Position numbers and translations under genes: made by a program. DNA of 64,000 bases from an uncultured Christensenellaceae bacterium (lineage in GTDB: Bacteria > Bacillota > Clostridia > Christensenellales > UBA3700): positions 47,706-111,705 of the forward strand of contig CAJUMY010000004.1 of the NCBI GenBank assembly GCA_910587685.1, read 5' to 3'. Positions within the stretch are counted from its first letter, which is position 1; every line of letters starts with the position of its first letter. The notes below the pieces were generated by a model. That model was not told the origin of the DNA and searched no databases. It saw only the letters and a program-made list of their open reading frames with translations. Below, piece after piece: positions 449 through 28,046 of the stretch.

Positions 449-798
449 GGGGTTGTTCCGAATTCGACAGCGATTCAAGAGATATCATAAGCATACCGAA
501 GGCTCGTCTTCGTTAAAACGGAAAATTAAAATTAAACGCTAAAAACAACAATCAAATGGCTTTTGCCGCTTAAGTTCGGCAGCCTGTCGCTCGCAATGAC
601 CCACGGGTTGCGTTAGCGGCATCAGTTTAGTGGGAAGGGCAACGCGAAGCGTCTCGAATGCGTTGCAAGACTAGAGACTCGCTATCGGCTCGCCCGTAGG
701 TAGGCTATCCCGATAGGACTGATATATGCCTAATATGTATGTAGAAAGTGGTATTGATTAGTCGTTGGACAGGGGTTTAACTCCCCTCAGCTCCACCA
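449..798 (+). ncRNA. ssrA: tmRNA (transfer-messenger RNA, SsrA)
   Basis: 5' end is GGGGUUGUUCCGAAUUCGACAG. Internal tag frame GCU AAA AAC AAC AAU CAA AUG GCU UUU GCC GCU UAA gives AKNNNQMAFAA* (538..573). 3' tRNA-like end is GGACAGGGGUUUAACUCCCCUCAGCUCCACCA, and the acceptor pairing includes G3:U. A terminator hairpin follows. Confidence 0.9.
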
Positions 799-5575: not shown

Positions 5576-5576
5576 T

Positions 5577-6096: not shown

Positions 6097-6185
6097 ATTC
6101 AGATTACGCTCCTTTTGCGTGTTTCTTGGTGGACTTATGTTATTCGCGTAATGCAAAGAGCAGTGCCGTCGAAGCAAAGCGAAGA

Positions 6186-6906
6186 CTAATGTTCGTTGGA
6201 CTGAGGGGAAACAAAAAAGATACTGTGAGCAGGGCGTAAGCCGGTGTCACGGTATCTTGGTGGTGCACCAAGTGATTTAATATCCGAATTTTTTGTTGCT
6301 TCAATTTCAGAAAGGGATACTGTCTGCGTTCCGTCTTTGAAGTTAAAAGTGATAGTAAATTTATCGTCAAACAGGTAAATTGAGTTCACAAACCCGTCTA
6401 TAAGCCGACGTTTACCTTCAAGCGTGGTAATATCAAGATTTCTGAACTGCTCTATACCGAATTGTATTTGCTCTTTCGTAAGGAAGGGCTTTTTTATTTT
6501 TTCTTGCAAAATGGCGATTTCGATTTCTTTCTTTTTGCTTTCAAGTTGTGCGAGTCTGTCCTTCGTGGTGTCCGTGATAATGCCTTGCTCGATAGCGTTC
6601 ATAAGATTTTCGATGCGCTTTTCGGTGTCGGTAAGCTGTCCTTTCAAATGCGGTATTCTCGGATTTTCTTCGCCTTGCAATACAAATATTCTTTCGGTAA
6701 GGTATTCAACTAACTTATCGTCGTGCAGAACTTTCATAGCCTTTTCTACGACCAAATCTTCTATCCAATCTTTCCGCACAGCTTTCTTGTCGCAGATATG
6801 CACCTTCTTTGTGTTAGCGCATTTGTAGTAACGGTAAACCCTTGAAGTTCCCATACCGCTCTCACCAACCATATGAGTATTGCATTTTCCACAGAAAAGT
6901 TTACTA
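6186..6906 (-). pseudogene. large serine recombinase of the outer element, C-terminal half (gene split by insertion)
   Basis: The frame reads ...SKLFCGKCNTHMVGESGMGTSRVYRYYKC... (recombinase zinc-ribbon) followed by a coiled-coil. It continues the N-terminal half at 13598..14417 once 6907..13599 is removed. Confidence 0.75.
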
Positions 6907-6937
6907 ATATGCGCAAATGGACAATGTAGTTATTTGG

Positions 6938-8569
6938 TTAAGTTTCTTTGCCTAACAGTTTGTAGTAGATGTGGATTTCTCTTGCGCCCGTTTTGTCGTC
7001 GGGGCTTGCACCTATGGTTATATACTCTATAAGTTCAAGGCACAATTCCCGTGTAAGTTCGGGTACGTCGGTATAGCGTTTGAGCCTACGGATAAATTCG
7101 TCCACGTCGGCTTCGTTTTTGCTTACGACGGACAGCGCGTTTTCAAGGTCGGTTATTTCAGCTTTCAGCTCGTCTTGTTCTTCGGTGTACTTGGCAAGAA
7201 GTTTCAAACAAATATCTTCGGGTATCTTGCCCAACACTTTGTCCTCGTAAACCGATTGCGTCAGCCGTTCAAGCTCGTTAAACCGTTTCGTCTTTTGCGC
7301 AAGGTCTTTCTTGTCGGCGTTATACTTTGCCGCAGAGATTTGTTCTTTGTATTTCAAGAAGTCCGCTCGTGCCTTTTGCTCGTCGTCCAAGATTAGCTTT
7401 GCCTTTGCGCGTATATCGTTAAGCACCACTTGTTCTATATCCTCGCGCCGTATGTAGTGGTTATAGCAATAGAATTTTCCGAACCGCGAGTGATTGCCGC
7501 AAATGTAGTGGTAACGAATACGTCTTTCGGGATGCTCTTTGGACGGTTTCAAATCTTGCTGTCCGAGCTTCATTTTACCGCCGCAGTCCGCACAAAACAT
7601 CAGTCCCGATAAAACGTGCATTGTTCCTCTCGAAGTGTGCTTGCCGTGGCTTGCAACGGACTCCTCGATTTCTCGGCATTTATCCCAAAGCTCTTGCGTT
7701 ACGATAGGCTCGAACGCATTGGGGAATACGATAGGCTCGCGGTTTGTGCGCCGTCTGTTCTTGTAAGATACGGTAGTATAGCGCAAACGTATCAAATGAC
7801 CGAGATACATCGGGTTTTTGAGAATACTCCGAAGAATACTGTCCGCCCATAAGTTCTTGTTCGGCTTTTTGTTGGTTACGCCGAACTTCTCATACAGATA
7901 TACGGCGGGGATAGGGACTTTCTCGTTGTTGAGAACGGTATAGATTTCGTTTAACGTCTTTCCCGTCGCTCTCATCTCGAAAATGCGTCTTACAATCGTT
8001 GCCGCCGGCTCGTCGATTACGGGCAAGCATTTATCGCCCGTACCTTTTACATAACCGTAAGGCGCGTGAGTAGAACGATATTTGCCCGCTTTTGCGTTCG
8101 CTTCGGTTACCGCGCGAATTTTCTTTGACGTGTTTGCCGAGTGCCATTCGTTAAAGATGTTCATAATCGGCATCATATCCATTCCCGCGCTGTTTACGTT
8201 CGCCGTGTCTACGTTGTCCGAAATGGCGATAAAGCGGATATTGTATATTGGGAAAATATAATCGACGTACTGTCCCACAAAGATGTAGTTCCTGCCGAAA
8301 CGGGATAAATCTTTTACGATTATCGTGTCGATTTTGCCTGTCTTGGCGTCCTCTAACAGTCTTTGCACTTGCGGTCTGTCGAAGTTTGTTCCGCTGTACC
8401 CGTCGTCAACGTATTCGTCTATAACCGTCCAACCGCGCTCTTGCGCGTACTTGGTTAAGATATTGCGTTGGTTTTCGATTGACAGCGATTCGCCTTGACG
8501 CTCGTCGTCCTTGCTGAGTCGCATATATAGTCCGACTTTGTTATTCAGTTGTATTTGCTTTGATTTCAT
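6938..8569 (-). CDS. large serine recombinase (TnpX-like)
   Basis: 543 aa. N-terminal resolvase catalytic domain (GLYMRLSKDDE...SLSIENQR, DDGYSG), recombinase domain, Cys zinc ribbon (CADCGGKM...CGNHSRFGKFYC) and a C-terminal coiled coil. The stop lies 31 nt from the element end. Confidence 0.9.
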   Translation of the reverse strand: MKSKQIQLNNKVGLYMRLSKDDERQGESLSIENQRNILTKYAQERGWTVIDEYVDDGYSGTNFDRPQVQRLLEDAKTGKIDTIIVKDLSRFGRNYIFVGQYVDYIFPIYNIRFIAISDNVDTANVNSAGMDMMPIMNIFNEWHSANTSKKIRAVTEANAKAGKYRSTHAPYGYVKGTGDKCLPVIDEPAATIVRRIFEMRATGKTLNEIYTVLNNEKVPIPAVYLYEKFGVTNKKPNKNLWADSILRSILKNPMYLGHLIRLRYTTVSYKNRRRTNREPIVFPNAFEPIVTQELWDKCREIEESVASHGKHTSRGTMHVLSGLMFCADCGGKMKLGQQDLKPSKEHPERRIRYHYICGNHSRFGKFYCYNHYIRREDIEQVVLNDIRAKAKLILDDEQKARADFLKYKEQISAAKYNADKKDLAQKTKRFNELERLTQSVYEDKVLGKIPEDICLKLLAKYTEEQDELKAEITDLENALSVVSKNEADVDEFIRRLKRYTDVPELTRELCLELIEYITIGASPDDKTGAREIHIYYKLLGKET

Positions 8570-8740
8570 TTATTTTACTCCTCTGAATCAAAGCAGCCAA
8601 ATTCAATGTACGGGTATTATACCACAATACACCGAATTTGGCAAGCCCGATCCGATATGTGAAGGGCGGCTATGCTTATTAAATTTCAAAACCGCCCGAT
8701 AATAAAGTTAGTTTTTTAAGCCTGCGTCGCGGTACGCCCG

Positions 8741-8881
8741 ATTAACGGCTATTCTCCGTAAAACCTCGTCCACGTCCTTATCGCCGCAAAAGTGGCTTGT
8801 TACAATGTATCTTTTTCCCTCAATCATATACTCTCTTTGCGATGTGGGTGCGCCTGCAAACTCCTCGCGTAATTGTTCCAA
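8741..8881 (-). CDS. small TnpW-like ORF (start uncertain, possible frameshift)
   Basis: Hand translation from TTG 8881 gives MEQLREEFAGAPTSQREYMIEGKRYIVTSHFCGDKDVDEVFTENSR*. Past a run of five A (8759..8763), the alternative frame continues LRRIAVNRAYRDAGLKN* and looks more protein-like. It sits between the recombinase and the relaxase. Confidence 0.3.
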
Positions 8882-9116
8882 CGTCTTGTTCGTAGTTGTT
8901 CCTCCAAAAATTTAATCATTCATATTCAATTTTCATATTCGATTTCCTCCGCGATTCTATGCGCGTTATCTAAAACGCAACTTTATTTCTGTTTGCGCTG
9001 TCCGCTCTATGGCGGGAATTTCCGTATAAAAAAGCCGTGAACGCTCTTTCAGTCCTTTTAACTTCTCATATTCCTGTGGACGTATTCTTCACGGTCTTTG
9101 TTTGTATATTTAATTG

Positions 9117-10127
9117 TTACTTGCCGCCTTTGTCGCTTGTGTTGCGGTTTCCGTTAAAGGAAGTAGGCGGACTTTTCTTTGCCCTTGACTTTTTCAAAAG
9201 CGCGTCGAACTCGTCGGGATATGCGCTCATCATATCCGTTACCATTTTGAAAGCGGTGTCGTTTGCTTTGCCTTGCCGTTCAGCTTTTTGCAACTGCTCG
9301 AACAAATAGTCCGTATCTCTGTTCTTGATAGCGATATGCTCTTTGTACGCCGCGTTTTCTACACGCAAACTTTCTATTTCCGCTTCGACTGCCTTTTTCT
9401 TTTTCGGAATAGGCTTACTGCGCTCGGCTTCGATAGAACTTTCAATACCGCTTAAATATTCTTCGGCTTTGGTCTTGGCTTGCTTTTCCGTTTCTTCGGC
9501 TCTCTTTTCGGCACGGTCTATAATCGTCTTGGCTTTGAACTCTGCTGTGTCGATATGCTTTGCTTGGCTGCCTTCCTTGCCGCGTTCCAAACCCCATTTC
9601 TTGCCGACTTTTTCGTGAAAGTCCGTTTGCAATTCCCGTAAGCTCGCTCGCGTGAACAACTGCTTTGCGCTCAACTTGTTCCCGACGATAGGAATAAGAT
9701 TTAAGTGCAAATGCGGCGTTGTTTCGTCCGTGTGGACTACCGCCGAAATAATATTCTCTCTGCCGAATCTTTCGGCAAAATACTCCGTAGCGTCCTCAAA
9801 AAACCGTTGCCGTTCCCACGGCGTTAAGCCGATAAAGAAGTTACCGTCCGATCCGATAATAAACGAACACATCAACACCGCGTCGCTTCGTACTTTTCGC
9901 TTCAACGGCAGAGTGGAAATTCGTTCGTTGATGTATTCCATATAACTGCCTTGCGGATAAACGATGTGGTAGTTGTTGTGCGTTCTCGACAAATCTATTT
10001 GCGGGTTGTCCGGACTGTAATTCTCGTCGCGCTCGTTTTCCTTTTCGATAGGCGTTACGTTGTCGCGCTTTTTGTTGTTATACTTTTTCAGTGTGCAAAT
10101 CAGATAAGATATAGTTGTTTCCTCCAA
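9117..10127 (-). CDS. MobV-family relaxase (Mob/Pre, TnpZ-like)
   Basis: 336 aa. HTDETTPHLHLNLIP is the HxDExxPHxH motif of Mob_Pre relaxases. The C-terminus is a Lys/Glu-rich coiled coil. Confidence 0.85.
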   Translation of the reverse strand: MEETTISYLICTLKKYNNKKRDNVTPIEKENERDENYSPDNPQIDLSRTHNNYHIVYPQGSYMEYINERISTLPLKRKVRSDAVLMCSFIIGSDGNFFIGLTPWERQRFFEDATEYFAERFGRENIISAVVHTDETTPHLHLNLIPIVGNKLSAKQLFTRASLRELQTDFHEKVGKKWGLERGKEGSQAKHIDTAEFKAKTIIDRAEKRAEETEKQAKTKAEEYLSGIESSIEAERSKPIPKKKKAVEAEIESLRVENAAYKEHIAIKNRDTDYLFEQLQKAERQGKANDTAFKMVTDMMSAYPDEFDALLKKSRAKKSPPTSFNGNRNTSDKGGK

Positions 10128-10195
10128 AATAATTTTCTAATGTTATACCGCCGTAAATAAGCCCCGCAGGGCACACGAACTTATGTAGCGAAGCG

Positions 10196-10232
10196 GAATA
10201 AGTATAGTGTGCTATACCTATGGTATAGACGC
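10196..10232 (+). other. oriT-like site of the inner element (pMV158-type)
   Basis: TAAGTATAGTGTGCTATACCTATGGTATAG contains an inverted repeat around GTGTG. It closely resembles the pMV158 oriT AAGTATAGTGTG/TTATAC as I remember it, and lies ~70 nt upstream of the mob start. Confidence 0.5.
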
Positions 10233-10305
10233 CCGTCCGCGACGATATTTTGCTTCCCGTAACAGTACGGTTGGCGTGCGTGTTTGCTTTCCGTTTGCTT
10301 GCCGA

Positions 10306-10326
10306 TTAAGGCGGTCTGATTATCAT
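10306..10326 (-). CDS. conserved 6-codon mini-ORF MIIRPP* with RBS
   Basis: GGAGGTAA RBS 6 nt upstream of the ATG. A homologous mini-ORF (MIFKPP*) sits at the equivalent position of the second mob module (16425..16445). Confidence 0.3.
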   Translation of the reverse strand: MIIRPP

Positions 10327-10636
10327 AGTGATTACCTCCGAATTGTTAGTTTTATATCTTCGTCCACGCAAGAAAGAGCGGGAAAGATACCGTAAAAAAG
10401 GCGCGAAAAAAGCCGCTGAACGCTTAACGTATCACCGACTTCTAACCGTGTTTAGCAACGTCTGATTGCTCTATGGTGGTTAGCCATTCTATTGAATTGT
10501 TTGCATTATTTTAGCTCAAAAGATACTCCTTAACCAAAAAATTTGTAACACAAAATAGACCATCTACGCTATCCGACTTTCGCACTCTCAAAGAGATCTC
10601 GGATAACTCCGGCTGCACTCATTGTCATACAAAACT

Positions 10637-10802
10637 GTACGACAATAAAAGCCTATCACGGCTCACGAATTTTGCGTACACTTAAAAAACCTACGCTCTT
10701 TCCGTAAGCTAAGGCGAGGCGGCTATACCGCCCAAAACCTTCTGCTTTCTGTGGACGAACTCTTTAACGCCCACCGCAGAACTTCTACCCAAAAGGGTAC
10801 AC
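10637..10802 (-). repeat. ~165-bp conserved module, copy A (inverted relative to copy B at 16119..16283)
   Basis: The reverse complement aligns by eye with 16119..16283 with only scattered mismatches (e.g. GTTCTGCGGTGGGCGTTAAAGA, CAGAAGGTTTTGGGCGGTATA, CTTAGCTTACGGAAAGAGCGTAGGTTTTTT, GTACGCAAAATTCGT, GCCGTGATAGGCTTTTAT). Confidence 0.8.
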
Positions 10803-10830
10803 TGCCACAAACTACATTGTGGTAGTGCGC

Positions 10831-10859
10831 ATTATATCACAAACTTTTGTTCGTTGCAA
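10831..10859 (-). promoter_or_regulatory. strong promoter reading into module A (TTGCAA-17-TGnTATAAT)
   Basis: On the minus strand: -35 TTGCAA (10854..10859), 17-bp spacer, extended -10 TGATATAAT (10831..10839). Confidence 0.5.
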
Positions 10860-11097
10860 GCCTTTCACCGCCCATAAACGGGCGGTGAAACAAGTTTTTA
10901 TAGAAAGTTTTGTCGAAAAGTATAATCGAGCGATTATTTGTTTGAACCATTGTCTACCACTTGTTTTTTTGCATTGAATGTGATATAATGATTGTGCGAT
11001 AAACAGTAATTTAACGGAGATAGACCGATAAGGCGTAACTGTCTTATCGGTCTTTTATTCTAATAGAAATTATTTTGAGAAAATTACTTAAAAATGC

Positions 11098-11128
11098 TTG
11101 CTCGTTACGCCGCGTAATGAATTATAAT
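11098..11128 (+). promoter_or_regulatory. MerR-type promoter with 19-bp spacer and dyad operator
   Basis: -35 TTGCTC 11098..11103 and -10 TATAAT 11123..11128. The 19-bp spacer contains the palindrome TTACGC-C-GCGTAA (11105..11117). This geometry is typical of MerR-activated promoters. Confidence 0.55.
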
Positions 11129-11145
11129 ATATGCGAGGTATATTT

Positions 11146-11934
11146 ATGGCAAGATATAAAGCAATTCCGCAAGGCTATATGACGGTTGGCGAAGTCGCAA
11201 AGAAAATGGGTGTAACCGCTCGGGCGTTGCAATATTATGACCGCGAAGGGCTATTTAGTCCGTCTTGTATCAGCGAAGGCGGACGGCGTTTGTATAGTGA
11301 TAAAGATATTGTTAAGTTGCATCAAATACTTACTCTTAAATCGTTAGGGTTTTCATTTGATGAAATTAAAAATCGTTTGACTTCTATTGATACGCCACAA
11401 AAGGCAATAATAGCGTTGACCGAACAAAGCAATTCGATACAAACACAAATAAATACGCTTACGCAATCTTTACAAGCAATCGAATTATTAAAAAACGAAA
11501 TAGAACAAATGCAAACAGTTGACTTTTCAAAGTATGCCGATATAATTGTCAACTTGCAAATGGGAAATAAATATTACGGTTTAATTAAACATTTTGACGA
11601 TAATATGCTTGATTACTGTCATAAGAAATTCGATAAAGATACGGGTGTCGCGTTTATAAATAAGTTTAACTTTATTGTCAGTAAAATAGAAAAATGCGTT
11701 GAAAACGACATAGCACCCGACAGCGAACATGGACAACTTATTGCAAAAGAATTTTGGCAACTTATAACAGAGTTCACGGGCGGCGATATGAGTATATTAT
11801 CACAACTGATGAATTTCGGTAACGCGCAAGCGGGTATCGATATGCAAAACGTTCTAAATACTTTTATCCAGCCTGCACTGGGCGTTTATTTTGAGAATTT
11901 GGGTATTAACCCTTTCGAGGTAAAAAATGAATAA
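11146..11934 (+). CDS. MerR-family transcriptional regulator
   Basis: N-terminal HTH YMTVGEVAKKMGVTARALQYYDREGLFSP...GGRRLYSDKDI. GAGGT RBS precedes the ATG at 11146. Has a ~190-aa C-terminal effector domain. Confidence 0.85.
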   Translation: MARYKAIPQGYMTVGEVAKKMGVTARALQYYDREGLFSPSCISEGGRRLYSDKDIVKLHQILTLKSLGFSFDEIKNRLTSIDTPQKAIIALTEQSNSIQTQINTLTQSLQAIELLKNEIEQMQTVDFSKYADIIVNLQMGNKYYGLIKHFDDNMLDYCHKKFDKDTGVAFINKFNFIVSKIEKCVENDIAPDSEHGQLIAKEFWQLITEFTGGDMSILSQLMNFGNAQAGIDMQNVLNTFIQPALGVYFENLGINPFEVKNE

Positions 11935-12739
11935 TATAATCGCGGTCAATGAATTAAAAAAGAGTTACGGCGCGAACTCCGTATTGAAAGGTATAAATTT
12001 AACCGTGCATAAAGGCGAAATCTTTGCTTTGCTCGGCGTAAACGGTGCGGGAAAAACTACGGCTTTGGAATGTATTGAGGGCTTACGCACTTACGATAGC
12101 GGAAATATAACCGTAAACGGGAAAATCGGTATTCAATTACAATCGTCCGCTTTACAAGCCTATATTAAACCTATGGAAGCCGTTAAACTGTTTGCGAATT
12201 GGCATAAAACCGTACCCGATAAAGAAATGTTAAATGCTTTCGGAATACCCGAATTGTCCAAAAAGAAATATGCCGATTTATCAACGGGACAAAAACGCCG
12301 CTTACACCTTGCGCTTGCCCTTATAGGCAACCCCGATATTATTTTTCTTGACGAACCGACGGCGGGGCTTGACGTTGAAGGGCGCGTATCGCTACACGAG
12401 CAAATCCGCGCATTAAAATCACAAGGTAAAACAATAATTCTTGCAAGCCACGATATGGCGGAAGTTGAAGAATTATGCGACAGAGTAGCAGTTTTACGGG
12501 ACGGGAATATTGCTTTTATCGGAACGGTTGACGAATTTACCGCTATGGGCGGCAAAAGGCATATTATACGCATTAAAACTGCCGACGGGCAAAATGAATA
12601 CGAAACGGAAAATATAACAGAAACTTTGTTTACGCTATTATCGGAATACAAGCAAAAAGGAATACCGATTTCCGAAATTCAGACCGACAGAGTGTCGCTT
12701 GAACAAAATTTTATAAACATTGTGAGAGGTGCGGAATAA
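11927..12739 (+). CDS. ABC transporter ATP-binding protein
   Basis: Walker A GVNGAGKTT, signature LSTGQKRRL, Walker B IIFLDEPTAGLD. Overlaps merR by 8 nt. Confidence 0.9.
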   Translation: MNNIIAVNELKKSYGANSVLKGINLTVHKGEIFALLGVNGAGKTTALECIEGLRTYDSGNITVNGKIGIQLQSSALQAYIKPMEAVKLFANWHKTVPDKEMLNAFGIPELSKKKYADLSTGQKRRLHLALALIGNPDIIFLDEPTAGLDVEGRVSLHEQIRALKSQGKTIILASHDMAEVEELCDRVAVLRDGNIAFIGTVDEFTAMGGKRHIIRIKTADGQNEYETENITETLFTLLSEYKQKGIPISEIQTDRVSLEQNFINIVRGAE

Positions 12740-13449
12740 TGAAAGCATTACTGTACGGAATTGGTTTGCAATTCAAGTTTGACATACGCAGTAAAGGTAT
12801 GCTTATTGCTTGTTATCTCGTGCCGCTTATATTTTTCCTGTTTATGGGCGGGATTTTCACTTCTATTGATCCAAACGCTACAAAAACACTTACCTCGTCT
12901 ATGACGGTATTTACAATCATAATGAGCGCATTGTTCGGCTTACCGCCCGCAGTTGCGGAAATCTACGGAACAGATGTTAAAAAGGTCTATAAGGCAAACG
13001 GCGCACCTATTTGGTTCGGCGTTATATCGCAATTTATTTCGTCTTTTATACATACGCTTATTTGTTGTCTTATAGTATTTGCTCTTTCGCCTTTAATTTT
13101 CAAAGCGGAGTTGCCATCTAATTTATTGTGGTATTTCTTATCACTTGTAGCATTACTTGCGGTAACTCTTGCTATCGGTTGTGTTTTCGGGCTTTTGATT
13201 AAACAGCAAGCAAAGTTGACAATGGTAGCAATGGCAATATTTTTGCCTTCCACTATGCTGTCGGGCATTATGTTTCCCGCAGATATGTTGCCACAATTTA
13301 TGCAATATATTGCCTATGCTTTCCCCGCGACAATAGCATTTAAGGCAATGACGAGTTTTCAAGTTTGGCATTTACCCGTATTGTTCGGTATATTTATTTT
13401 ACTTTGCGACGTTATCGCTCTACTGTTAAAAATTAAAGTCAAAAGATAG
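12739..13449 (+). CDS. ABC-2 type transporter permease
   Basis: 236 aa with ~6 hydrophobic helices. Its start overlaps the ATPase stop (ATGA-type coupling). Confidence 0.75.
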   Translation: MKALLYGIGLQFKFDIRSKGMLIACYLVPLIFFLFMGGIFTSIDPNATKTLTSSMTVFTIIMSALFGLPPAVAEIYGTDVKKVYKANGAPIWFGVISQFISSFIHTLICCLIVFALSPLIFKAELPSNLLWYFLSLVALLAVTLAIGCVFGLLIKQQAKLTMVAMAIFLPSTMLSGIMFPADMLPQFMQYIAYAFPATIAFKAMTSFQVWHLPVLFGIFILLCDVIALLLKIKVKR

Positions 13450-13597
13450 ATTTCCTTAAATAAAATTTCAATTTAGCGTTCTAAATGTGTTGATAAAAAG
13501 TCGAGATTCCATAAGGAGTCCCGACTTTTGCTTTTACATTGATTTGTCCGCTTTAATTCTAATTTAGATTTTGTGTGTCCATTTGCGTAAACTACAT

Positions 13598-14417
13598 TAA
13601 GGGTAAGTAAATAATCATCTTCGGCTTTATGTCTTGCAGGTGCTTTCTTGTTTTTTGCCAAACGCTGTTGCACTCTCTCGAAAACATCTTCCGATACAAG
13701 CGGTGGAATAATGTTCGGTACTGTTACATCTCGGAATTTATATTCGCCCAAATACCTGCGGTTAGATAACATACGCTGAACGCCCGTGCCGTTAATCTTG
13801 CCGCCCCGATAAGAGCGGATTTTCTTTTTGTCAAGGTAGTCAACGATATACTTAATTGTATGACCGTCGGCGTACATTGTAAATATCTCTTGAAGGATAG
13901 GTGCAAAGGTTTCGTGCGGCTCGAACTTTCTTTCCGCATTTAGTTTATAGCCGAAAGTAATTTGTCCGCCGTTGTTTATGCCTTTGAGTACGTTTTCAGT
14001 CATACCACGCACAACCTTTTCGGCAAGCTCGGCAGAATAGTATTCCGCCATACCTTCCAAAACCGATTCAAGGAGTATGCCTTCCGAGCCTTCGGCAATA
14101 GCTTCTTTTGCGGATACAACTTTTACACCGTTTTTGCGGAGTAGTGCTTTGTAGTGTGCGCTGTCGTAACGGTTACGGGAAAAGCGGTCTAACTTCCAAA
14201 CTATAATGCAATCGAAAGCGTGTTTATAGCTGTCCTTAATCATTTGCTGAAATTCGGGACGGTTATCCGATTTAGCGGAAAGCGCACGGTCTATGTAAGA
14301 CTTGATAACGTCAATTCCTGCGTGTTCGGCAAATTCCATACACTCACGAAGCTGACCTTCGATAGACGCTTCCGTTTGGTTGTCTGAACTGTATCTTGCG
14401 TAAATGACTGCTCTCAT
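13598..14417 (-). pseudogene. large serine recombinase of the outer element, N-terminal half
   Basis: MRAVIYARYSSDNQTEASIEGQ... is the resolvase catalytic Ser domain. The homologous sequence ends at ...AEDDYLLTL (codon 273, 13601..13599). The ORF then runs into inner-element DNA to a stop at 13473. Confidence 0.8.
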
Positions 14418-14418
14418 T

Positions 14419-15516
14419 TTAACCTCTGTTCAATTTGTATTTTTCAGATAAAATATTGGTTGCATTTTTATGTTTGCTTAAAATAAATATATCCTTAATA
14501 TTTGATAATGTATTTGGGTCGTCTAGGTCATCTGTAGTTAAAGATAGCATGCTCGTTTGCCCTATAATTTTAGTTGTAGTTTTATCATTATCTATAACTT
14601 GTTTTATATCTTCTGTTAAAAAATAATCCTCCGCATAGAGTAAGACGATATAATTTATAACAGACAATTTTTCTTCTTCGGAAAGCTTCTTAAATTTTTT
14701 GTAAAAACTCCTATATCGAGTTTCATTATTATTGACAAAAAGAATAATTGCTGTTTTATTCTCAAGAGGAAAAATGCAAACATGTAATTCTTTTGTTTTA
14801 TATTTTGGATTATAGCAGTATATATCATTTATAATGTTACCGTCAAAATCAAGATAAAGTGTTATTTGTCCTTGATACGCAATTGGTGTAACATAATCTA
14901 ATAGTTTATAATAAATCAGATAATATCCATCATTATCATCCTTTTTTAATAACGATTTAGCTTTTCTAATAGAAGTATAATATTCTTCATAATCCATTTC
15001 TTTTATGGCTTGAATACCTTCAATAAAGTTTTCTTTACCTATGGTTTTTTCTTTAAGAACATCATACATCTTTATTTCATCCATACGTTTGCTAATGGCT
15101 TTGAGACCATTTTTTAAGGCAATTTGAGCTAAAATCTTTGAAGAAGGTTTTTCGTTATAAGCTTTTGGATTTTCGTATTCTTGAAATACAACGCTATCAC
15201 ATTCACGGCAAATGAGTCTAAATGTGCCTGCCTCATTTATACCGTTTTCAGATTTTATGTAAAACGGATATTTAACTATTGAGTTGCAAGTACAAACTTT
15301 TCCGTCCTTTTCTATATTTCTTAAACAAAACGCAGGGACAGTATGTGAGTTGCAAAAAGAAGTTTGTTCTTTGCCACAAATCAAGCAAGAAGAAGGTTTT
15401 GCACGATTTTTTGCCTCTCGCATAATGCGGCTCATAGTTTTGTTTATCTCAATCTTATCGCCGGTAAACTCACTATTCAATTTGTCACTATTTTCTTTTA
15501 AATTGAGTGCTTTCAT
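14419..15516 (-). CDS. orphan Cys-rich protein (365 aa), function unknown
   Basis: Long AT-rich ORF with N-terminal CLICG...CNSH and CRECD clusters. The stop is 1 nt from the recombinase ATG, and the gene is co-oriented with the upstream XRE gene. Confidence 0.6.
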   Translation of the reverse strand: MKALNLKENSDKLNSEFTGDKIEINKTMSRIMREAKNRAKPSSCLICGKEQTSFCNSHTVPAFCLRNIEKDGKVCTCNSIVKYPFYIKSENGINEAGTFRLICRECDSVVFQEYENPKAYNEKPSSKILAQIALKNGLKAISKRMDEIKMYDVLKEKTIGKENFIEGIQAIKEMDYEEYYTSIRKAKSLLKKDDNDGYYLIYYKLLDYVTPIAYQGQITLYLDFDGNIINDIYCYNPKYKTKELHVCIFPLENKTAIILFVNNNETRYRSFYKKFKKLSEEEKLSVINYIVLLYAEDYFLTEDIKQVIDNDKTTTKIIGQTSMLSLTTDDLDDPNTLSNIKDIFILSKHKNATNILSEKYKLNRG

Positions 15517-15583
15517 TAATCATTATAATCCTTGGTGTGTTATTTCATTTGGTTTAATTATTTCTCGTCATTAGACCAAAGCA

Positions 15584-15943
15584 TTATTCTTTTCCTTCTA
15601 AAATTTTCAATAGCGTTTCTTTCAATTTAGCATTTGCAGGAGAGGAAGGGTCGAAGCACATTTCGACAAACGCTTGCATTTGCTCGTTGTCTTGCCAAAC
15701 CTTCGGCTGAAAATCATAGAGCTTCCCTTGTGGACTATCGCACCTACCGTATATATAGTCAAGTGATACGTCGAAGTAATCCGCATACCATAAAAGAATA
15801 TTGCTCGGAACTTCCGATTGACTATTCTCATAACGGTTGACCGCAGACTGTACCATTTTGCCGTTTGCCTTTGCGATCTTTGCTTGTGATACTTTTGTGT
15901 TCTCGCGTAATGCTTTTAAGCGTTGACCTATAACTTTATTCAT
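15584..15943 (-). CDS. XRE-family helix-turn-helix regulator
   Basis: IGQRLKALRENTKVSQAKIAKANGKMVQSAVNRYENSQ is a typical HTH_XRE N-terminus. Confidence 0.8.
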   Translation of the reverse strand: MNKVIGQRLKALRENTKVSQAKIAKANGKMVQSAVNRYENSQSEVPSNILLWYADYFDVSLDYIYGRCDSPQGKLYDFQPKVWQDNEQMQAFVEMCFDPSSPANAKLKETLLKILEGKE

Positions 15944-16063
15944 TGAATCACCTCAAAAGAGAGTATAACACACTAGAAAGATAATGTCAATATAATATCT
16001 GGGTTAATTTAATCTTTTCGACAAAACTTCCCACAAATCGCAAACATTTGTTTATATAATTTA

Positions 16064-16092
16064 TTGACTTGCTACTGCCATTGTGATAAAAT
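16064..16092 (+). promoter_or_regulatory. strong promoter reading into module B (TTGACT-17-TGnTAAAAT)
   Basis: -35 TTGACT 16064..16069, 17-bp spacer ending in TGA, -10 TAAAAT 16087..16092. Confidence 0.5.
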
Positions 16093-16118
16093 TCATACTA
16101 TACGATATAAGTCGTATT

Positions 16119-16283
16119 GTACCCTTTTGAGGGTAGAGTTCTGCGGTGGGCGTTAAAGAATTTGCCCATAGGATGCAGAAGGTTTTGGGCGGTATAACCG
16201 CCTTGCCTTAGCTTACGGAAAGAGCGTAGGTTTTTTAGTTGTACGCAAAATTCGTATGCCGTGATAGGCTTTTATAAGTGTAC
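16119..16283 (+). repeat. ~165-bp conserved module, copy B
   Basis: See copy A (10637..10802). Same order relative to its promoter, mini-ORF, oriT and mob gene. Confidence 0.8.
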
Positions 16284-16318
16284 AATTTTTTAGCTATAAC
16301 GACGTTCAATATCAACAT

Positions 16319-16357
16319 TGAATCCGTGCGGAGCGTAATGCCGAGCGGATTTTTTGT
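16319..16357 (+). terminator. possible terminator/attenuator downstream of module B
   Basis: AATCCG...CGGATT stem (6 bp plus a weak inner stem) followed by TTTTTT. The loop is rather large. Confidence 0.35.
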
Positions 16358-16424
16358 CGTTGTATTTTTAGCTATCTACCACCTTTTGCGTGGACGAGAT
16401 AAATATATTTTGGAGGTAAACACA

Positions 16425-16445
16425 ATGATTTTCAAACCGCCATAA
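16425..16445 (+). CDS. conserved 6-codon mini-ORF MIFKPP* with RBS
   Basis: GGAGGTAA RBS 6 nt upstream. Homologous to 10306..10326. Confidence 0.3.
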   Translation: MIFKPP

Positions 16446-16494
16446 TACGGCAAGCAAACGGAAAGCAACTGCATAGGAAACAACTTATCGCCGA

Positions 16495-16522
16495 GCATAA
16501 GTGTAGCTCACTACACTTAGCA
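16495..16522 (-). other. oriT-like site of the outer element
   Basis: The minus strand reads AAGTGTAGTGAGCTACACTT, an inverted repeat homologous to AAGTATAGTGTGCTATAC of copy A. It lies ~100 nt upstream of the mob start. Confidence 0.45.
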
Positions 16523-16615
16523 AGCTAAGTTGCGTTCGCCCTGCGGGGCTTTCGACCGCACGACAAAACAGAGATTTTAAGGAGGATTTTAAGTATAAGT
16601 TATTTAGTATGCCAT

Positions 16616-17605
16616 ATGGAAAAGTATAAACGGCAAGACGTTACGCCCGTTGAAAAAGAGAACGAAAGAGATGAGAACTATCAAGGCACTAATCCGCAAA
16701 TAGACAGCGAGAGAACAAACGGAAACTATCACTTGATATATCCACAGGGCAAGTACATAGAGATGATTAACAAGCGGCTTGATACTCTTACACTCAAAAG
16801 GAAAATTCGCTCGGACGCTATCCTAATGAACTCGTTTGTAATCGGATCGGACGGAGAGTTTTTCAAGGGTATGCGAGCTTGGGAACAACACGCTTTCTTT
16901 GAAGATTGCACCCGCTTCTTTATGGAAAAGTACGGCTATGAAAATATGCTGTCCGCGGTAGTCCACGTGGACGAAACAACACCGCACCTGCACTTAAATT
17001 TCGTGCCTATCAATGACGGACGATTGAGTAGCAAAAGCCTATTCGACAGACAGAAACTTGCGGAACTGCAAACCGAGCTATGGGAACAAGTCGGAAAGAA
17101 ATACGGTTTACAACGTGGTAAGGAAAACAGTCAGGCAACGCATATTACAGCCGCAGAACATAAGGCAAAAGTCATTGTGCAATCGGCGGAACAAAAGCGA
17201 GATGAGATTGACAGACAGACCGAGCAAAAGCAAGACGAACTTGACGGACTTACCCAAACGATTGAAGCGGTAACGCAAGCGATAGGCAAGCCTATACCAA
17301 AAAAGAAGAAACAAGCTGCGGACGAAATCACGGCTTTAAGAGCAAGGAACGCCGTACTCGAAGAAGAAGTCAAGCGAGCAAACAAAGACCGTACAGACCT
17401 ATTCAGAGAGTACACAAGAGAGAAACGACGAGCGGACGAATACGAAAAGACCGTACAAGAAGTTGCGGAAATCAAGGCGGTACTGCCCGAAGGTTACGAC
17501 CAACTGTTACAGGACGTGCAGTATGAAAAAGCCGAAAGATACGAAAGAGAACGGCAACGAAATCTCGCCCGTATTCACGGACGATACAGCGACCACCAAA
17601 TGTAA
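16616..17605 (+). CDS. MobV-family relaxase (second copy)
   Basis: HVDETTPHLHLNFVP motif. The N-terminal ~190 aa are clearly homologous to 9117..10127 (VTPVEKENERDENY..., RSDAILMNSFVIGSDGEFF...). Confidence 0.85.
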   Translation: MEKYKRQDVTPVEKENERDENYQGTNPQIDSERTNGNYHLIYPQGKYIEMINKRLDTLTLKRKIRSDAILMNSFVIGSDGEFFKGMRAWEQHAFFEDCTRFFMEKYGYENMLSAVVHVDETTPHLHLNFVPINDGRLSSKSLFDRQKLAELQTELWEQVGKKYGLQRGKENSQATHITAAEHKAKVIVQSAEQKRDEIDRQTEQKQDELDGLTQTIEAVTQAIGKPIPKKKKQAADEITALRARNAVLEEEVKRANKDRTDLFREYTREKRRADEYEKTVQEVAEIKAVLPEGYDQLLQDVQYEKAERYERERQRNLARIHGRYSDHQM

Positions 17606-17645
17606 ACTTAATAACCGCTTATAAGGAGGAAAACGCCAACAGTTA

Positions 17646-17834
17646 ATGTCAAGACGGAAAAAGAACACCACAGGGATACCCGATTTTGAAATCGATTCCC
17701 TTGCAAGAGCATTATTGCCCGCTATACAAGCCTACTTTGAAACCGAAGAAGGACAAAGAGAGTTTGCGGCGTGGCAAGCCGAAAGGCAACAAAAACAACT
17801 GAATAATAAATTGAATAATAAAGAATCCCGTTAA
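17646..17834 (+). CDS. small hypothetical protein (62 aa) of the mobilisation module
   Basis: ORF directly downstream of mob, preceded by an AGGAGGA RBS region and followed by a strong terminator. Confidence 0.45.
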   Translation: MSRRKKNTTGIPDFEIDSLARALLPAIQAYFETEEGQREFAAWQAERQQKQLNNKLNNKESR

Positions 17835-17964
17835 ATCGTATAGGGATAGCCGTTGAAAAAGACGGATAAGGAAAACCGCTATATAGTGAAGCGGTATATA
17901 AATGAAAGATACATAAAAACAATGTTAAAAGGTTGCGCCGAATATTAGAAACCTATATAACGGC

Positions 17965-17998
17965 AAGAGGCAGAGCTAAAAGCTCTGCCTCTTTTTAT
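17965..17998 (+). terminator. intrinsic terminator
   Basis: AAGAGGCAGAGCT-AAA-AGCTCTGCCTCTT followed by TTTAT. Confidence 0.7.
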
Positions 17999-18004
17999 AT
18001 ATGG

Positions 18005-19095
18005 GTGAATTATACTATCAAGTGCAACAGGTGAGAATAAAAAAAGAGTTCATATAAATCAATGTGTTATAATTAGTTTGCAACAACAAAAAACACAGGA
18101 GAAATATATGAACTACACCCATCTTACCATAGAAGAACGCGCTTGTCTACGAAAATATTACGTTGAAGGAAAAAGTTACAGAGAAATAGCACGGTTGCTC
18201 GGGAGGAACGTAAGCACAATCTCGCGCGAGATTGCTCGCAATTACACTCACCGTTACGCCATAAATACATACTACCCGCACACAGCGCAAAAGTAATATC
18301 TGCTTCGCCGCTCATTCTGTCACATGGGAATGTTTTGGAATAAAGAAGTAATTGCTTACATAAATGAAAAGTTACAGTTAACGTGGTCACCGGAACAAAT
18401 AGCGAGTACGCCGTGTCATTTAAAGATGCCTACATTTAAAACGATATATCGTTGGATATATGAAAAGTATTTGGCAGGCGGGAACGTTAAAGTATTACGG
18501 AAGAAAGGCAAAACGAGGAAACGGCTTGGAAACGGCGGAAGATTTACAATGGGGAAAAGTATACGAAAACGAGATAAAAGCGTATATAAACGCAAAGAAT
18601 TCGGACATTGGGAAGCAGATACGGTAGTATCCGGACGAGGAAAGACGAAAGCCTGTTTTGCAACGCTTGCGGAAAGAAAGACAAGATTTTATATAGCAAT
18701 TAAGATACCGAACAGAAACGGTGAAACAATGGCGAGAGCAATAATACAAGCATTGGGCAAGCTGCCGAAAGGAGCAGTTAAGACGATAACTTGTGACAGA
18801 GGCAGCGAATTTGCTAATTGGCGACAGGTTGAAAAAGAACTTAATTGTGATATGTATTTTGCAGACCCGTATTGTGCTTGGCGGAAAGGAACGAATGAGA
18901 ACCTGAACGGTTTATTGAGAGAATTTTATCCCAAGGGCAGAAATCTTTCTCGCGTTTCTAAAAAAACGCTCGAAAAAAATCTGGCGTTAATTAACGCCAG
19001 ACCGAAAAAGGTTTTGGGCTTTAAAAAACCCGTTTATTTATTTAACTTTTTTTTAACTAAGTGTTGCACTTAGTTTGACAATTCACTATATGAGT
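18005..19095 (+). mobile_element. IS30-family insertion sequence
   Basis: Imperfect terminal inverted repeats GTGAATTATACTATCAAGTGCAACA (left) and TGTTGCACTTAGTTTGACAATTCAC (right). TATATG occurs in both flanks but is not flush with the IR ends. Contains an IS30 transposase. Confidence 0.75.
18108..19073 (+). pseudogene. IS30-family transposase with an in-frame TAA stop
   Basis: The N-terminal HTH part (MNYTHLTIEERACLRKYY...TAQK) and the DDE part (...WSPEQIAS...HWEADTV...DRGSEF...NENLNGLLREF) are in the same frame. They are separated only by TAA at 18294..18296. Confidence 0.8.
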
Positions 19096-19279
19096 ATAAC
19101 TTTAAGTTATATTTAATAAATCATAATAATTCTCTATTTTTCGGTGTAACACAAAACTACTTAATTATAGACACATTCTAACTTGTTGACCATCCATTTG
19201 GGCTAGCACTAACTTCAATAAAAAAGTTGTAAAAATTTTATTTTATCCTTATTGTTGATTTGCAAACTACAACTAGCAC

Positions 19280-19308
19280 TTGCAATTTTTGCAATTGTTT
19301 GCTACAAT
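19280..19308 (+). promoter_or_regulatory. promoter candidate of the AT-rich cargo operon (TTGCAA-17-TACAAT)
   Basis: -35 TTGCAA 19280..19285, 17-bp spacer, -10 TACAAT 19303..19308. TTGCAA occurs three times in 35 bp. Confidence 0.4.
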
Positions 19309-19349
19309 ATTTATTGTCGAAAAATAAAATATTGTGTCGATAAAATTTA

Positions 19350-19772
19350 ATGAGGGCTGTCATTGTGATAAATTGTCTTTTAGCCGCTTTAGAGTGGAGT
19401 GATGTTGCTGATGCTGTGTATGTATTAGTGGGTGCTATTTTAGGGATGGCATCGTCCTTGCTTATTGGCTGGGGAGCCAAACGATATGGAATACGCCGAT
19501 TAAAAAAGATGTTACGAGTGGAATTAAATGGCATCAAGCAAGAGGTAGAGGACAATATTGCAGACAGTGGCGAAATTATTCTTCCTTCACCGATTTGGAA
19601 TTTTATTGGACAAACATCTACATTATTGGATTTAAAAGTAAGCGACTATAAAAAGGTAGTAGCGATCCATGGCGCAATTATTGCGTTTAAGGAAACAGAA
19701 AGCAATAGTGCCACTCGTAGTGAAGCCAATAGACGTAATTTTATCAAGGAAATAAACGAGAATACATTTTGA
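19350..19772 (+). CDS. small membrane-anchored protein (140 aa), unknown function
   Basis: One clear N-terminal TM helix (AVYVLVGAILGMASSLLIGWGA) followed by a soluble charged domain. Lies 17 nt upstream of the NTPase gene. Confidence 0.5.
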   Translation: MRAVIVINCLLAALEWSDVADAVYVLVGAILGMASSLLIGWGAKRYGIRRLKKMLRVELNGIKQEVEDNIADSGEIILPSPIWNFIGQTSTLLDLKVSDYKKVVAIHGAIIAFKETESNSATRSEANRRNFIKEINENTF

Positions 19773-19789
19773 TTGAATAGGTAAAACAT

Positions 19790-22700
19790 ATGAGTACGAA
19801 GCATATTAGGATAATTAAAAAACTTGATGATATTCTTGGTTCTCTTCTAGAGAAAACCAAAATCCTGTGTAGCAATGTAAATCTATTTGGTGGAAGTATA
19901 TCTAATGCCTCTCTATATGGTATTTATATTCCGATGCCAACAAATTTCAAGCTTAATGTAGCGATTAAAAATCACGAAATTGAATGTATCGAGGAAGAGA
20001 GAGTATATCGGGATGATACGCTAAAATATTCTAAAGGTATAAATGAGAACATAAAAAAGCTTGGAGGTCAAGTATCAAGCATTTTAAGAGATGGGTTGGC
20101 TAATCATGTGAAAAATGGAGATGAATATAATTTTCCGGATCCCCATGATAGACCCCTGATTATGAGTGCACCTTGGGCAGATGGCTATAAAAAGAACTAT
20201 TGGACGCTGAATGTTTTTGATATAGTATCTATTTACGATCGAGTAGCGTTATTGGGGAAGCCCGGGACAGGTAAAAGTACGGCGTTGAAGTATCTGGCTT
20301 CTACGCTGATTGAAAATATTCTAACGAACGAACAGATGACAAGTGTTGATGTCTTGTCTGATAAACTTTTTGCTGAGAATTATATCCCCATTTATATTGA
20401 ATTCAGAAAATTGGCTAACTGGTGGAATGAAGAGGTTGAGGCAACAAGAATAGGAAATGAAGAGAGAATTAATCTTGGTCTAATTACGCGGTATCTGTAT
20501 AGTCAAGCGGGAATAAGTTATATCAATGGAACGAGATTGCCGAGCCAGAATAAATATATTTTTATGTTCGATGGGATAGACGAAATCCCTCAGGGCATAA
20601 ATAATATTGATCATGCCTTTTCTCAGAGTGCGCTAAATTATCTCGTGGGTGAAATTGCCAGGACATATGGGGGCGAGAATAAAGAGGTTAAAATTTTATT
20701 CTCTTCAAGAATAGACGAGTTCAATAGCTATTCGTTCAACAATTTTGAAGTTGCAGAGCTGGTTTCGATGAATGAATATATAGCGATTGATTTAATTGAT
20801 AGAATAAAAACATTATGCAATGATGAATGTACGGATCCTAGGGGGTTATTGGCAGAATTAAAGGAAAAAGGATTTGGCGATGACATCGTTTTCAATCCGA
20901 TGCTGTTGTCTCTATTATCATTTGTTGCTATAGATAAAGGTAAAGGGAAATTGCCGGACAATAAATGCGAGGTATTGCGAGAGAGTATAGAATTATTACT
21001 TAAAAGATGGGCGACAAAGGGTGAAAATAAACCGGCTTTCTTCAGTCAATTTGAACAGGAGGGCAATTTATACGGACAAGCTATCTTTAAGGAGTTAGAG
21101 AAATTTGCCTACGAGTCGGAAGAAAATGGTCAAATTAGCATTGCGGTTCTATATAGTTTTATGCGTAGAGAACAAAGTAACGCAAATTCAATCATGGACT
21201 ATTTATCAAAAACGGCAGGGTTGATTGTCGAAGATACAGAGTTATCGGCTAAATTTGCACACAAAAGTTTCAGATCGTATTTAGCTGCGTCATATATTTG
21301 TAATCAAGCCAATGTCGTTGAATTGTTGCTGAAAGAAGTTGATAAAAGCATAGCTATTGGTGGAATTAATGAAACATTGACGCTAGCTGTGGAGATATTA
21401 TTAGATGATAATTCTCAAGGTTACACGTTAGAGTCGTTTGTTTCGCAGAGTCTGGATAAGTATAGCGATTATGATTTATGCGTTTGGTTTATTGGTAAGA
21501 TTGTAAGCGGCAGAGAGGGGAAATTTTATAAAGAAAGGATTATTCACAATACATATATTACAACGAAATTATTAGAAAAATTGGGGTCAGTATTTCATGA
21601 ATCCAATCAAATACCACCGAATAAGCGTATAGAGTGTGGATATTTTCTTGGTCAACTCGGTGATCAGCGAGAAGGTATCGGAAACACCGAAGCTAATTTA
21701 TCGGACATCGTTTGGTGCCCTGTAAATAAGTGCGAATTAGAATTTGGTCTTACGAAGGTCGCACGTGATATGGTGTCAAAAACTCCGTGGGGTGCCGATA
21801 TTGATTTTTCAAGGGAATGCACGAAAAAGGGCGAAACCATCAAAATGGATATTGATGAATTTGAAATATCCAAATATCCCGTTACTGTGGCGCAATTTAC
21901 AGCATTTTTACAAGACAATGACGGATATAAAAATAAAAGGTGGTATACATGGTCAGGGGCAAGTTTAGACTATTATAACGGTGTTGTGATTAAGACAATT
22001 CCAAAAGAAAATGCCACTGATTACTATTTCGATTTTTATTTGCCCAAATTATTTCGAATACCAAATCTGCCTATCACTCACGTCCCGTTCTTTGTTGCCA
22101 TAGCATTTTGTAAGTGGTTAACAGAAAAAATGAATGACGGAACAGAGGTGCGGTTGCCTACTGAAATGGAGTGGGAGACCGCTGTGAAAATGCGGGGAGG
22201 TCAAGTATATGAATGGGGCGATGATGGTGTCAATTCAGATTGGCAAGATCAATTTGTTACCAATAATTGTAACTGCCTGGGCACCAAAATATATCGAGTG
22301 TGTCCAGTGGGGTCATTCAATGATACTAAGGAGAGGACGCCGGTTGATTTAACAGGAAATGTTTGGGAATGGACATCGTCCTACTTTACTGACACACTTG
22401 GAATAGTAAGTGTAAACACAACTATTAACACAATCGAAAATAAACATCTGACAACGGACAACGCCAAAAACTTACTCATTACCGCTAGAGGGGGGTCGCT
22501 GCATAATGGTTTGAATGGCTTGCGCGTTTCATTCCGCGGAAGAGATCCGATTCTTGCCGATGCTGCCGATCGTCATTCATTTAGGGTCGTACGCACAAAA
22601 CCGCGAACGATAAGTTATTATGAAGAGAGAAAACTAGCGAAGGGAAATAATAAGAATGGAGTGGCAGAAGGTTACGGGCTTCCTGTAAATCGAGGTGACA

Positions 22701-22960: not shown

Positions 22961-22973
22961 GGAGATATATATT

Positions 22974-23717: not shown

Positions 23718-23725
23718 TCGGTTTT

Positions 23726-27914: not shown

Positions 27915-28007
27915 AATGTTTTACAGAATATGTGTGGATACCTATCCTCCTGTGATAACTGTATTACATCAATATTAATAGAAATTTGTTGCTATTAAAT
28001 CCAAGAG

Positions 28008-28046
28008 AAAACCGAGAGTTGAAAAACTCCCGGTTTTATTTTTTTA
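28008..28046 (+). terminator. intrinsic terminator ending the cargo operon
   Basis: AACCGAGAG-TTGAAAAA-CTCCCGGTT (one mismatch) followed by TTATTTTTTT. Confidence 0.55.

Follow-up and report, generated by a model that had tools for sequence, protein, structure and literature searches.

The stretch of DNA analysed here (64,000 nucleotides; contig CAJUMY010000004.1, positions 47,706 to 111,705, of an uncultured Christensenellaceae bacterium; hereafter the window) carries a large serine recombinase (LSR) gene that is split in two by an inserted element with an LSR gene of its own. We call the split gene the outer LSR gene and the one inside the insert the inner LSR gene. The 5′ part of the outer gene (13599..14417, minus strand) holds codons 1-273, with the Resolvase and Recombinase domains, and the 3′ part (6186..6902, minus strand) holds codons 274-511 and the stop codon, with the zinc ribbon and coiled-coil part. 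Both halves had been recognized in a first-pass annotation made from the letters alone: the minus-strand open reading frame (ORF) at 13473..14417 carries the Resolvase and Recombinase domains, stays homologous up to ...AEDDYLLTL at codon 273 (13601..13599) and then runs into foreign sequence, and the minus-strand frame entering at about 6905 reads SKLFCGKCNTHMVGESG..., the start of the zinc ribbon, and ends at 6186. Deleting 6907..13599, the interval which that annotation proposed, does give an open 512-codon frame with Resolvase (residues 3-146), Recombinase (172-256) and Zn_ribbon_recom (275-328) domains that score 105, 66.1 and 39.9 bits, all above the curated cutoffs. The rebuilt protein matches thousands of intact LSRs by BLASTP, the closest 98% identical, and the collinearity expected of it holds, with 15 of 15 aligned intact homologues (62-96% identity) running continuously across the junction. 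All of them read DDYLLTL-KLFCGKC, without a serine. The open frame thus stands but its exact boundary does not: the left end was placed 3 nt off, which adds a Ser codon to a protein of 511 amino acids.

An uninterrupted copy of the gene, which the first-pass annotation had suggested looking for in related genomes, fixes the boundaries. We retrieved this empty site, contig L093 (JGI 3300006131), through its neighbouring QueF protein; its chromosomal context is identical to that of the window, and its outer LSR gene encodes 511 uninterrupted amino acids. In a blastn comparison, L093 positions 2425-9327 equal window positions 1-6903 (99.99%) and positions 9325-16492 equal window positions 13597-20764 (100%), and the two matches overlap by 3 nt, TTA (6901-6903 = 13597-13599). 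This gives an insert of 6,696 bp, which can be written as 6904..13599 or as 6901..13596, counting one core copy and the shared A, and the element proper, 6903..13596 on the minus strand, is exactly the segment that L093 lacks. Corrected excision restores a 511-codon gene with 0 mismatches to L093 in 1,536 nt. A second intact allele is present in L095, giving two empty alleles beside the filled alleles of the window, L001 and others. The inner-element junction recurs in at least 10 assemblies from different samples, so the pattern is not due to chance.

The inner LSR gene (543 amino acids; 6938..8569, minus strand) faces outward at the element's end, its stop codon near the left end as the first reading had it. 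Its product carries Resolvase, Recombinase, Zn_ribbon_recom and DUF4368 domains (PF00239 104.9, PF07508 63.5 and PF13408 54.9 bits, all above curated cutoffs; DUF4368 48.6 bits, cutoff 25) and matches the PHROG integrase family phrog_95. A MobV/Pre relaxase of 336 amino acids (9117..10127, minus strand; PF01076 168 bits; NCBIfam MobV 176.5 bits, cutoff 100) follows, and between the relaxase and recombinase genes lies a conserved 57-amino-acid ORF (8708..8881, minus strand), 60% identical to the 58-amino-acid ORF that occupies the corresponding position in P0133-type elements. The inner mob gene is preceded by some 175 nt (10628..10801) that are 88-92% identical to the stretches upstream of the outer mob, L091 mob and L095 mob genes, and that probably form an origin of transfer (oriT). 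The cargo consists of a MerR-family regulator (11131..11934, plus strand; Pfam MerR_1), an ABC transporter ATPase (11927..12739, plus strand; DrrA-like, below the family cutoff) and an ABC-2 permease identified by profile searches (12739..13449, plus strand), which together would form a regulated ABC-2 exporter with a presumed efflux function. L011 holds a 4.8-kb sister element that matches at 94-96% identity elsewhere but has no counterpart of this block (11013..13462). The inner ORFs thus comprise the LSR, the 57-amino-acid ORF, MobV, MerR and two ABC proteins; with an integrase and a relaxase and no VirB4 or type IV secretion system among them, the inner element is an integrative mobilisable element (IME). 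Searched against plasmids, the whole inner element gave no megablast match, and tblastn of the inner LSR against plasmid records reached at most 37% amino-acid identity.

The imperfect inverted repeats noted in the first reading are present at the ends of the insert as two 12-nt arms, CGCAAATGGACA (6912..6923) and TGTCCATTTGCG (13576..13587), of which CGCAAATGGACA is kept as TTGTCCATTTGCG across all family members. The crossover dinucleotide is AA on the sense strand of the target, and hence TT on the plus strand at 6901-02 (the recombinase-side junction, placed by the TTA overlap of L093 and the AA of L011) and at 13597-98 (the far junction, placed by the empty-site match and comparison of far ends). 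The two junctions of L011 have only AA in common, and an AA core is found at every far end recovered and in 30 of 30 LSR-type flanks. Each arm lies 9 nt from this core. The TA dinucleotides to which the crossover had been assigned (6905-06 and 13598-99) do exist at both junctions, but they would place the arms unequally, at 5 and 10 nt, and L011 shares only AA; the boundaries 6907..13599 with a TA core are ruled out by the intact homologues, the L093 overlap and the arm spacing. Joining the ends gives an attP that is a 44-bp imperfect palindrome with the 12-nt arms 9 nt either side of AA, GCGCATATTAGT-AA-TGTAGTTTACGC (joint context ...TTGTCCATTTGCGCATATTAGT-AA-TGTAGTTTACGCAAATGGACA...), and the attB of the window is the LSR-gene sequence TTACTTACCCTT-AA-ACTTTTCTGTGG. 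An internal sequence, AACTACATTGTGGTAGTGCGCAT (10810..10832), resembles the recombinase-side end AACTACATTGTCCATTTGCGCAT at 17 of 23 positions; it does not mark the edge of the cargo, and its reading as a former element boundary is not supported, as it lies in the part common to the 4.8-kb sister element and the cargo indel spans 11013..13462. That the two outer LSR fragments are naturally separate genes, an assembly chimaera or the product of homologous recombination between paralogous recombinase genes is vanishingly improbable, for although the two LSRs, inner and outer, are paralogous and repeats may be misjoined in metagenome assemblies, these proteins are only 24% identical, the junctions lie outside the inner LSR ORF, have conserved inverted repeats and are repeated in at least 10 independent assemblies, and the intact gene at the same locus in L093 and L095 contradicts it.

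To define where relatives of the inner element reside, we examined 80 genome loci encoding relatives of the inner LSR, chosen by that protein alone, and scanned metagenome contigs with the end motif TTGTCCATTTGCGCANNNNAGTAA, which ends at the core and so leaves the flank unbiased. The scan added 30 loci, look-ups of LSRs at 83% and 75% identity supplied further sites, and the same end-motif scan of viral contigs gave no match. Among the relatives at least 85% identical to the inner LSR (L011, L012, L015, L016, L017 and L021), each recombinase gene is followed, 33-48 nt past its stop codon, by a different LSR C-terminal fragment, and the abutting fragments in the genome loci begin at profile position 272-274. 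The identical 543-amino-acid inner LSR is also encoded on L003 and L004, both from another sample, where its end adjoins a different, unrelated LSR gene; the L003 target belongs to a three-LSR cluster next to TnpV and TraG-like genes. In total, 31 of the 37 distinct family junctions lie in LSR genes, at the codon before the x-x-C-G-x-C of the zinc ribbon. Thirty of the 37 flanks read K-[LVMACIH]-x-C-G-x-x, and all of these continue as an LSR zinc ribbon except that of L018, a truncated remnant (KHFCGKYAII...); one further flank is an inverted insertion in an LSR gene.

The targets themselves are diverse, with 26 of them falling into 24 clusters at 90% and 19 clusters at 50% amino-acid identity; this divergence is far above that of the elements, and the insertions are therefore independent. 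Across the flanks, four features never vary: the AA core, TG (positions 10-11), GG (13-14) and T (19). G at 20 is present in 29 of 30. The upstream target halves read ...Y-L-L-T-(T/L) or F-L-L-S-G, so that attB encodes ...Y-L-L-T-x / K-L-x-C-G-x-C-G..., at the zinc ribbon's first zinc knuckle, with the crossover on bases 1-2 of the Lys codon. Because this zinc-knuckle motif is conserved in very divergent LSR genes, one family can land at a single codon in many integrase genes. No LSR fragment lies directly beside the LSR genes of more distant relatives (63-64% and 55-61% identity), which limits LSR-gene specificity to the clade at least about 75% identical to the inner LSR. The best-supported result of the analysis, drawn from these sequence comparisons, is that the element family uses the LSR genes of other elements as its landing site; a preference for serine recombinase genes, offered only as speculation in the first-pass annotation, is borne out by the 31 junctions, out of 37 distinct ones, that fall on one and the same codon in diverse LSR genes.

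A chance hit in an LSR gene by low-specificity transposition of the Tn4451 type would leave such genes with no preferred status. DUF4368 LSRs have been described as 'multi-targeting' (PMC10083194), Tn4451 is listed as using numerous GA sites (PMC5704250), and 6 of the 37 flanks here are not LSR genes. With 31 junctions at one LSR codon, 26 clustered targets still forming 19 clusters at 50% identity, and the AA, TG, GG and T positions fixed (and the G at 20 nearly so), this explanation is very improbable. Survey bias is an unlikely source of the pattern, as the motif searched for extends no further than the core and only the inner LSR was used to choose the genome loci.

For LSRs in general, a non-palindromic core dinucleotide determines which way round integration occurs, and half-sites can be exchanged for one another. 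The L003 copy runs opposite to its target gene, which on the sense strand reads ...GKYALTE up to the junction and then TT. We predicted beforehand that the other L003 junction would consist of the far end of the element followed by TT and zinc-knuckle codons, all on one strand. A look-up of the cargo permease recovered L144, from the same sample as L003, which reads ...TGTCCATTTGCG TAAACTACA TT G CTT GTG TGC GGA GAG TGT GGC; the flank translates as LLVCGECGSPYRR (LLVCGECG), and joining the two halves gives ...GKYALTE/LLVCGECGSPYRRITW (also written GKYALTE/LLVCGECGSPYRR) with the register unchanged. The prediction thus held for a single inverted insertion, represented by L003 and L144, in a target with TT in place of AA: the element is inverted because this target has a Leu codon (TT) where the others have a Lys codon (AA). 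As read from these two contigs, this case shows that element orientation follows the core dinucleotide.

At the equivalent place the inner element's own LSR gene reads GGA CTG ATG TTT TGT GCG GAC TGC, with CT for the AA core and GCG for GGN, and the invariant GG is missing. The inner LSR gene is accordingly not expected to be a target, since both the AA core and the invariant GG are absent. Several other members of the wider family differ in form. In P0133-type elements (L131-L138), whose LSR is 83% identical, the terminal ~27 nt (GGAACAATTATATTGTCCAT...) are tandemly duplicated just after the LSR stop codon, providing two candidate recombinase-binding arms. L129 (9058..11770, minus orientation) holds a ~2.7-kb member between matching ends, at an AT-rich non-coding site with an AA core; it exemplifies a secondary site and is possibly a minimal element. 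Around position 3999 of L021, the element's far end is short of its final 11 nt and meets the target LSR near residue 125 rather than 273, a shape that suggests a deletion across the junction. L141 and L142 encode an LSR 63% identical to the inner one, followed by a 144-amino-acid ORF and then SMODS and S_4TM genes (a CBASS-like defence pair); their target is not an LSR gene.

The host of the interrupted gene is itself an inserted element. Contig L096, with flanks 99.2% identical to the window, lacks window positions 6270..28167, and its flanks overlap by the 9-nt repeat TGGTGCACC. The left copy of this repeat (6261..6269) encodes G-A-P near the C terminus of the outer LSR, and the right copy (28168..28176) is the 3′ end, CCA plus acceptor stem, of a tRNA-Arg(ACG) gene (28168..28244, minus strand). 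Homology with L091 stops at 6261, and the inverted repeats ATCCGAATT (6282-6290) and AATTCGGAT (28149-28157) lie 12 and 10 nt inside the borders. The outer unit most likely forms a single island of some 21.9 kb (6270..28167), and the absence of the whole island from L096 indicates that it was itself inserted at the tRNA-Arg 3′ end. The nesting of one element inside another, as first proposed, is thereby borne out by the empty sites of L093 and L096, and the outer element is far larger than the span 6186..14417 that had been assigned to it. As the left repeat lies within the outer LSR frame, the C terminus of the protein comes from host DNA and differs from one integration site to the next; the outer LSR codons past ...LGAP are host DNA outside the outer element's end, and the C termini of outer-LSR homologues diverge beyond ...LGAP because the G-A-P repeat marks that end.

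The backbone of the outer element includes a 365-amino-acid protein of unknown function (14419..15516, minus strand), a helix-turn-helix regulator (15584..15943, minus strand), an oriT-like stretch (16017..16291) similar to that upstream of the inner mob gene, and a MobV relaxase (16616..17605, plus strand). Neither the 365-amino-acid nor the inner 57-amino-acid ORF gave anything informative in Pfam, NCBIfam and PHROG searches. An IS30-like transposase with HTH_38 and rve domains, split into two ORFs (18100..19073, plus strand), also occurs in both empty-site contigs, L093 and L095, and the remainder to 27914 (plus strand) is sugar-modification cargo encoding an FGE-sulfatase-domain protein, an SDR, an amidohydrolase, UDP-glucose dehydrogenase, UDP-GlcNAc 2-epimerase and a hexapeptide transferase. 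The outer element is thus a second, larger IME that hosts the inner one. The inner and outer relaxases are only 48% identical, yet the ~175-nt stretches upstream of their genes are 88-92% identical, and these near-identical oriT-like sequences suggest that both elements may use one helper. An Rfam scan of 5500-29000 found tRNA only; the mob-upstream stretches and a repeat downstream of queF match no known RNA family. This last repeat, a stretch of about 105 nt between queF and the tRNA-Arg site (6142..6246), is present in the related genome L097 as three tandem-like copies, including 8836-8940 and 9105-9205. Further upstream, a tmRNA gene (449..798; tag AKNNNQMAFAA) precedes the queuosine biosynthesis operon.

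Filled and empty alleles with conservative junctions, symmetric ends, a 2-bp core, a fixed register and core-dependent polarity are all on record, and we conclude that the inner IME was very probably inserted by its own DUF4368-type LSR, through conservative site-specific recombination, into the LSR gene of a larger IME at tRNA-Arg. In the mechanism we propose, the inner LSR would join attP, with its AA core, to the zinc-knuckle attB of the target LSR gene; the element could later be excised as a circle, restoring the target gene exactly; and its transfer would proceed through the MobV relaxase and oriT with a conjugative system supplied by a putative helper. While the inner element is in place, the outer island would have no intact recombinase and be immobile. 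With the only recombinase gene found in the outer element split, it is reasonable to infer, as the first-pass annotation did, that this element has been inactivated and immobilised; the state is probably reversible, as conservative excision would leave the gene exactly restored.

Several observations weigh against this account. The attP circular joint was sought in all locus sequences of the analysis and not found, so that excision and current activity are only putative, and some copies, such as that of L021, look decayed. The six flanks outside LSR genes, mostly AT-rich, make the specificity strong but not absolute. The right end of the outer island is placed by one empty-site contig and short inverted repeats, and tandem islands at the tRNA would be a less likely alternative. 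The helper system, the function of oriT, the substrate of the cargo exporter and the effect on outer mobility are all inferences.

Why the family should favour LSR genes can be read in two ways: the insertion may serve as a neutral safe harbour, or it may be a means of controlling the host element. Most likely, the specificity evolved since LSR genes are abundant, dispensable to the cell and horizontally mobile, which would give the inner element a safe harbour and a ride along with its host; the host element's silencing would then be a reversible side effect. Alternatively, the targeting could be adaptive antagonism or control, in which a hyperparasite switches off the integrase of a rival or host and locks that element in place or ties its excision to its own. 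Insertion always cuts the zinc-ribbon and coiled-coil part off from the catalytic and recombinase domains and should abolish function, the near-identical oriT-like stretches mean that inner and outer elements may compete for one helper, and a comparable idea has been proposed for IMEs in traG of integrative conjugative elements (ICEs) (PMC5357655, PMC5704250). The functional side of this argument is nonetheless read from sequence, a landing site could be provided just as well by any other sequence that is conserved and dispensable, and the six non-LSR sites indicate that the element can live elsewhere. Likewise, the missing target positions in the inner LSR gene fit antagonism but are also expected from simple selection against self-insertion. 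We consider adaptive antagonism unlikely, and prefer the safe-harbour reading. A broader proposal, somewhat less doubtful to us but still only tentative, is that one clade of DUF4368-LSR IMEs, comprising those whose LSRs share at least about 75% identity with the inner one, is a group of hyperparasites specialised on other LSR-borne elements; they would recognise zinc-knuckle DNA with AA-core polarity, be self-immune and turn the host integrase reversibly off, so that the inner element governs the mobility of the outer.

An IME family whose attachment site lies in the integrase gene of other elements adds a layer to the interactions among mobile elements. Resident islands can be frozen, possibly reversibly, and nested structures can be built in gut and rumen Clostridia, where they mislead annotation through split 'recombinase' genes and apparent two-recombinase elements. 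By recognising a DNA motif under protein constraint, one recombinase can reach many genomes. The family also bears on the specificity classes of LSRs considered as genome-engineering tools, as a concrete example in which a 'multi-targeting' enzyme may in fact recognise one motif; if the hyperparasite proposal is true, some LSRs catalogued as 'multi-targeting' are really motif-specific. The att sequences are directly testable, with a natural polarity control (AA versus TT) included.

The inner element had been called Tn4451-like, and in architecture it is. Like Tn4451 and Tn4453, the TnpX mobilisable transposons of Clostridium, it is ~6-7 kb long with a 2-bp crossover, a small cargo, a Mob/Pre (MobV) relaxase and an LSR at the element end; its DUF4368 domain would tentatively place the inner LSR in the clade that includes TndX-like enzymes (PMC10083194). 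The Mob/Pre (TnpZ-like) relaxase of Tn4451/Tn4453 has an upstream oriT (RSA), for which MobV and the conserved 175-nt stretch upstream would be the counterpart here. Elements of that family excise to a circle that does not replicate, and a promoter is formed at its joint; among the locus sequences of the analysis no attP joint of the inner element was found. Neither close kinship nor strict membership held up: the core is AA, not GA, one coding motif is strongly preferred over 'numerous sites', and none of the six inner ORFs scanned matches TnpV, TnpY, TnpW or cat in Pfam or NCBIfam. Durrant et al. (2022) class LSRs clustered at 90% identity as 'multi-targeting' when a cluster occurs in more than three target clusters at 50% identity, and the present family, DUF4368-bearing like the clade described there, would score as such (PMC10083194). 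Unlike what that label implies, its different targets are all LSR genes hit at the same codon, which is specificity for a shared motif and not relaxed specificity.

The skin element in sigK, SPbeta in spsM and gin in gerE interrupt developmental genes of their hosts and excise on a developmental cue. As in those systems, an LSR-bearing element here splits a coding sequence that precise excision would rebuild; unlike them, it interrupts a gene of another mobile element, and its excision has no known regulatory cue. The closest parallel is with nested serine-integrase IMEs, known in rumA and in traG, maff2 and snf2 of Tn5252-type ICEs, with Tn6104, Tn6105 and Tn6106 in Tn6103 (Tn6104 and Tn6103 being from C. 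difficile) and IME_Rho_tet in MAFF2 genes as examples (PMC5704250, PMC5357655, PMC3158075, PMC12904643). The inner element shares with these its small size, mobilisability, outward-facing LSR at one end and own relaxase, and likewise inserts site-specifically inside a conserved gene of another mobile element, disrupting the gene and leaving a 2-bp repeat (PMC5357655, PMC5704250, PMC3158075, PMC12904643). Insertion recurs at one position, with filled and empty alleles and 31 independent LSR-gene insertions in one register, and the host of the target gene is itself mobile, the outer island having its own MobV and being absent from L096. By contrast with these elements, the target here is the integrase (LSR) gene itself, at the DNA of the first zinc knuckle, and the host is another IME at a tRNA gene, so that hosts are not only ICEs. 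A recombinase gene is absent as an integration target from the target lists of PMC5357655, PMC5704250, PMC3158075 and PMC12904643, and full-text searches, within the searchable literature, returned no report of an LSR gene in that role. The inner element therefore works like the nested serine-integrase IMEs with the architecture of Tn4451, from whose family it departs in its core, its specificity and its accessory genes, and what is new within this known class is integration specificity for LSR genes.

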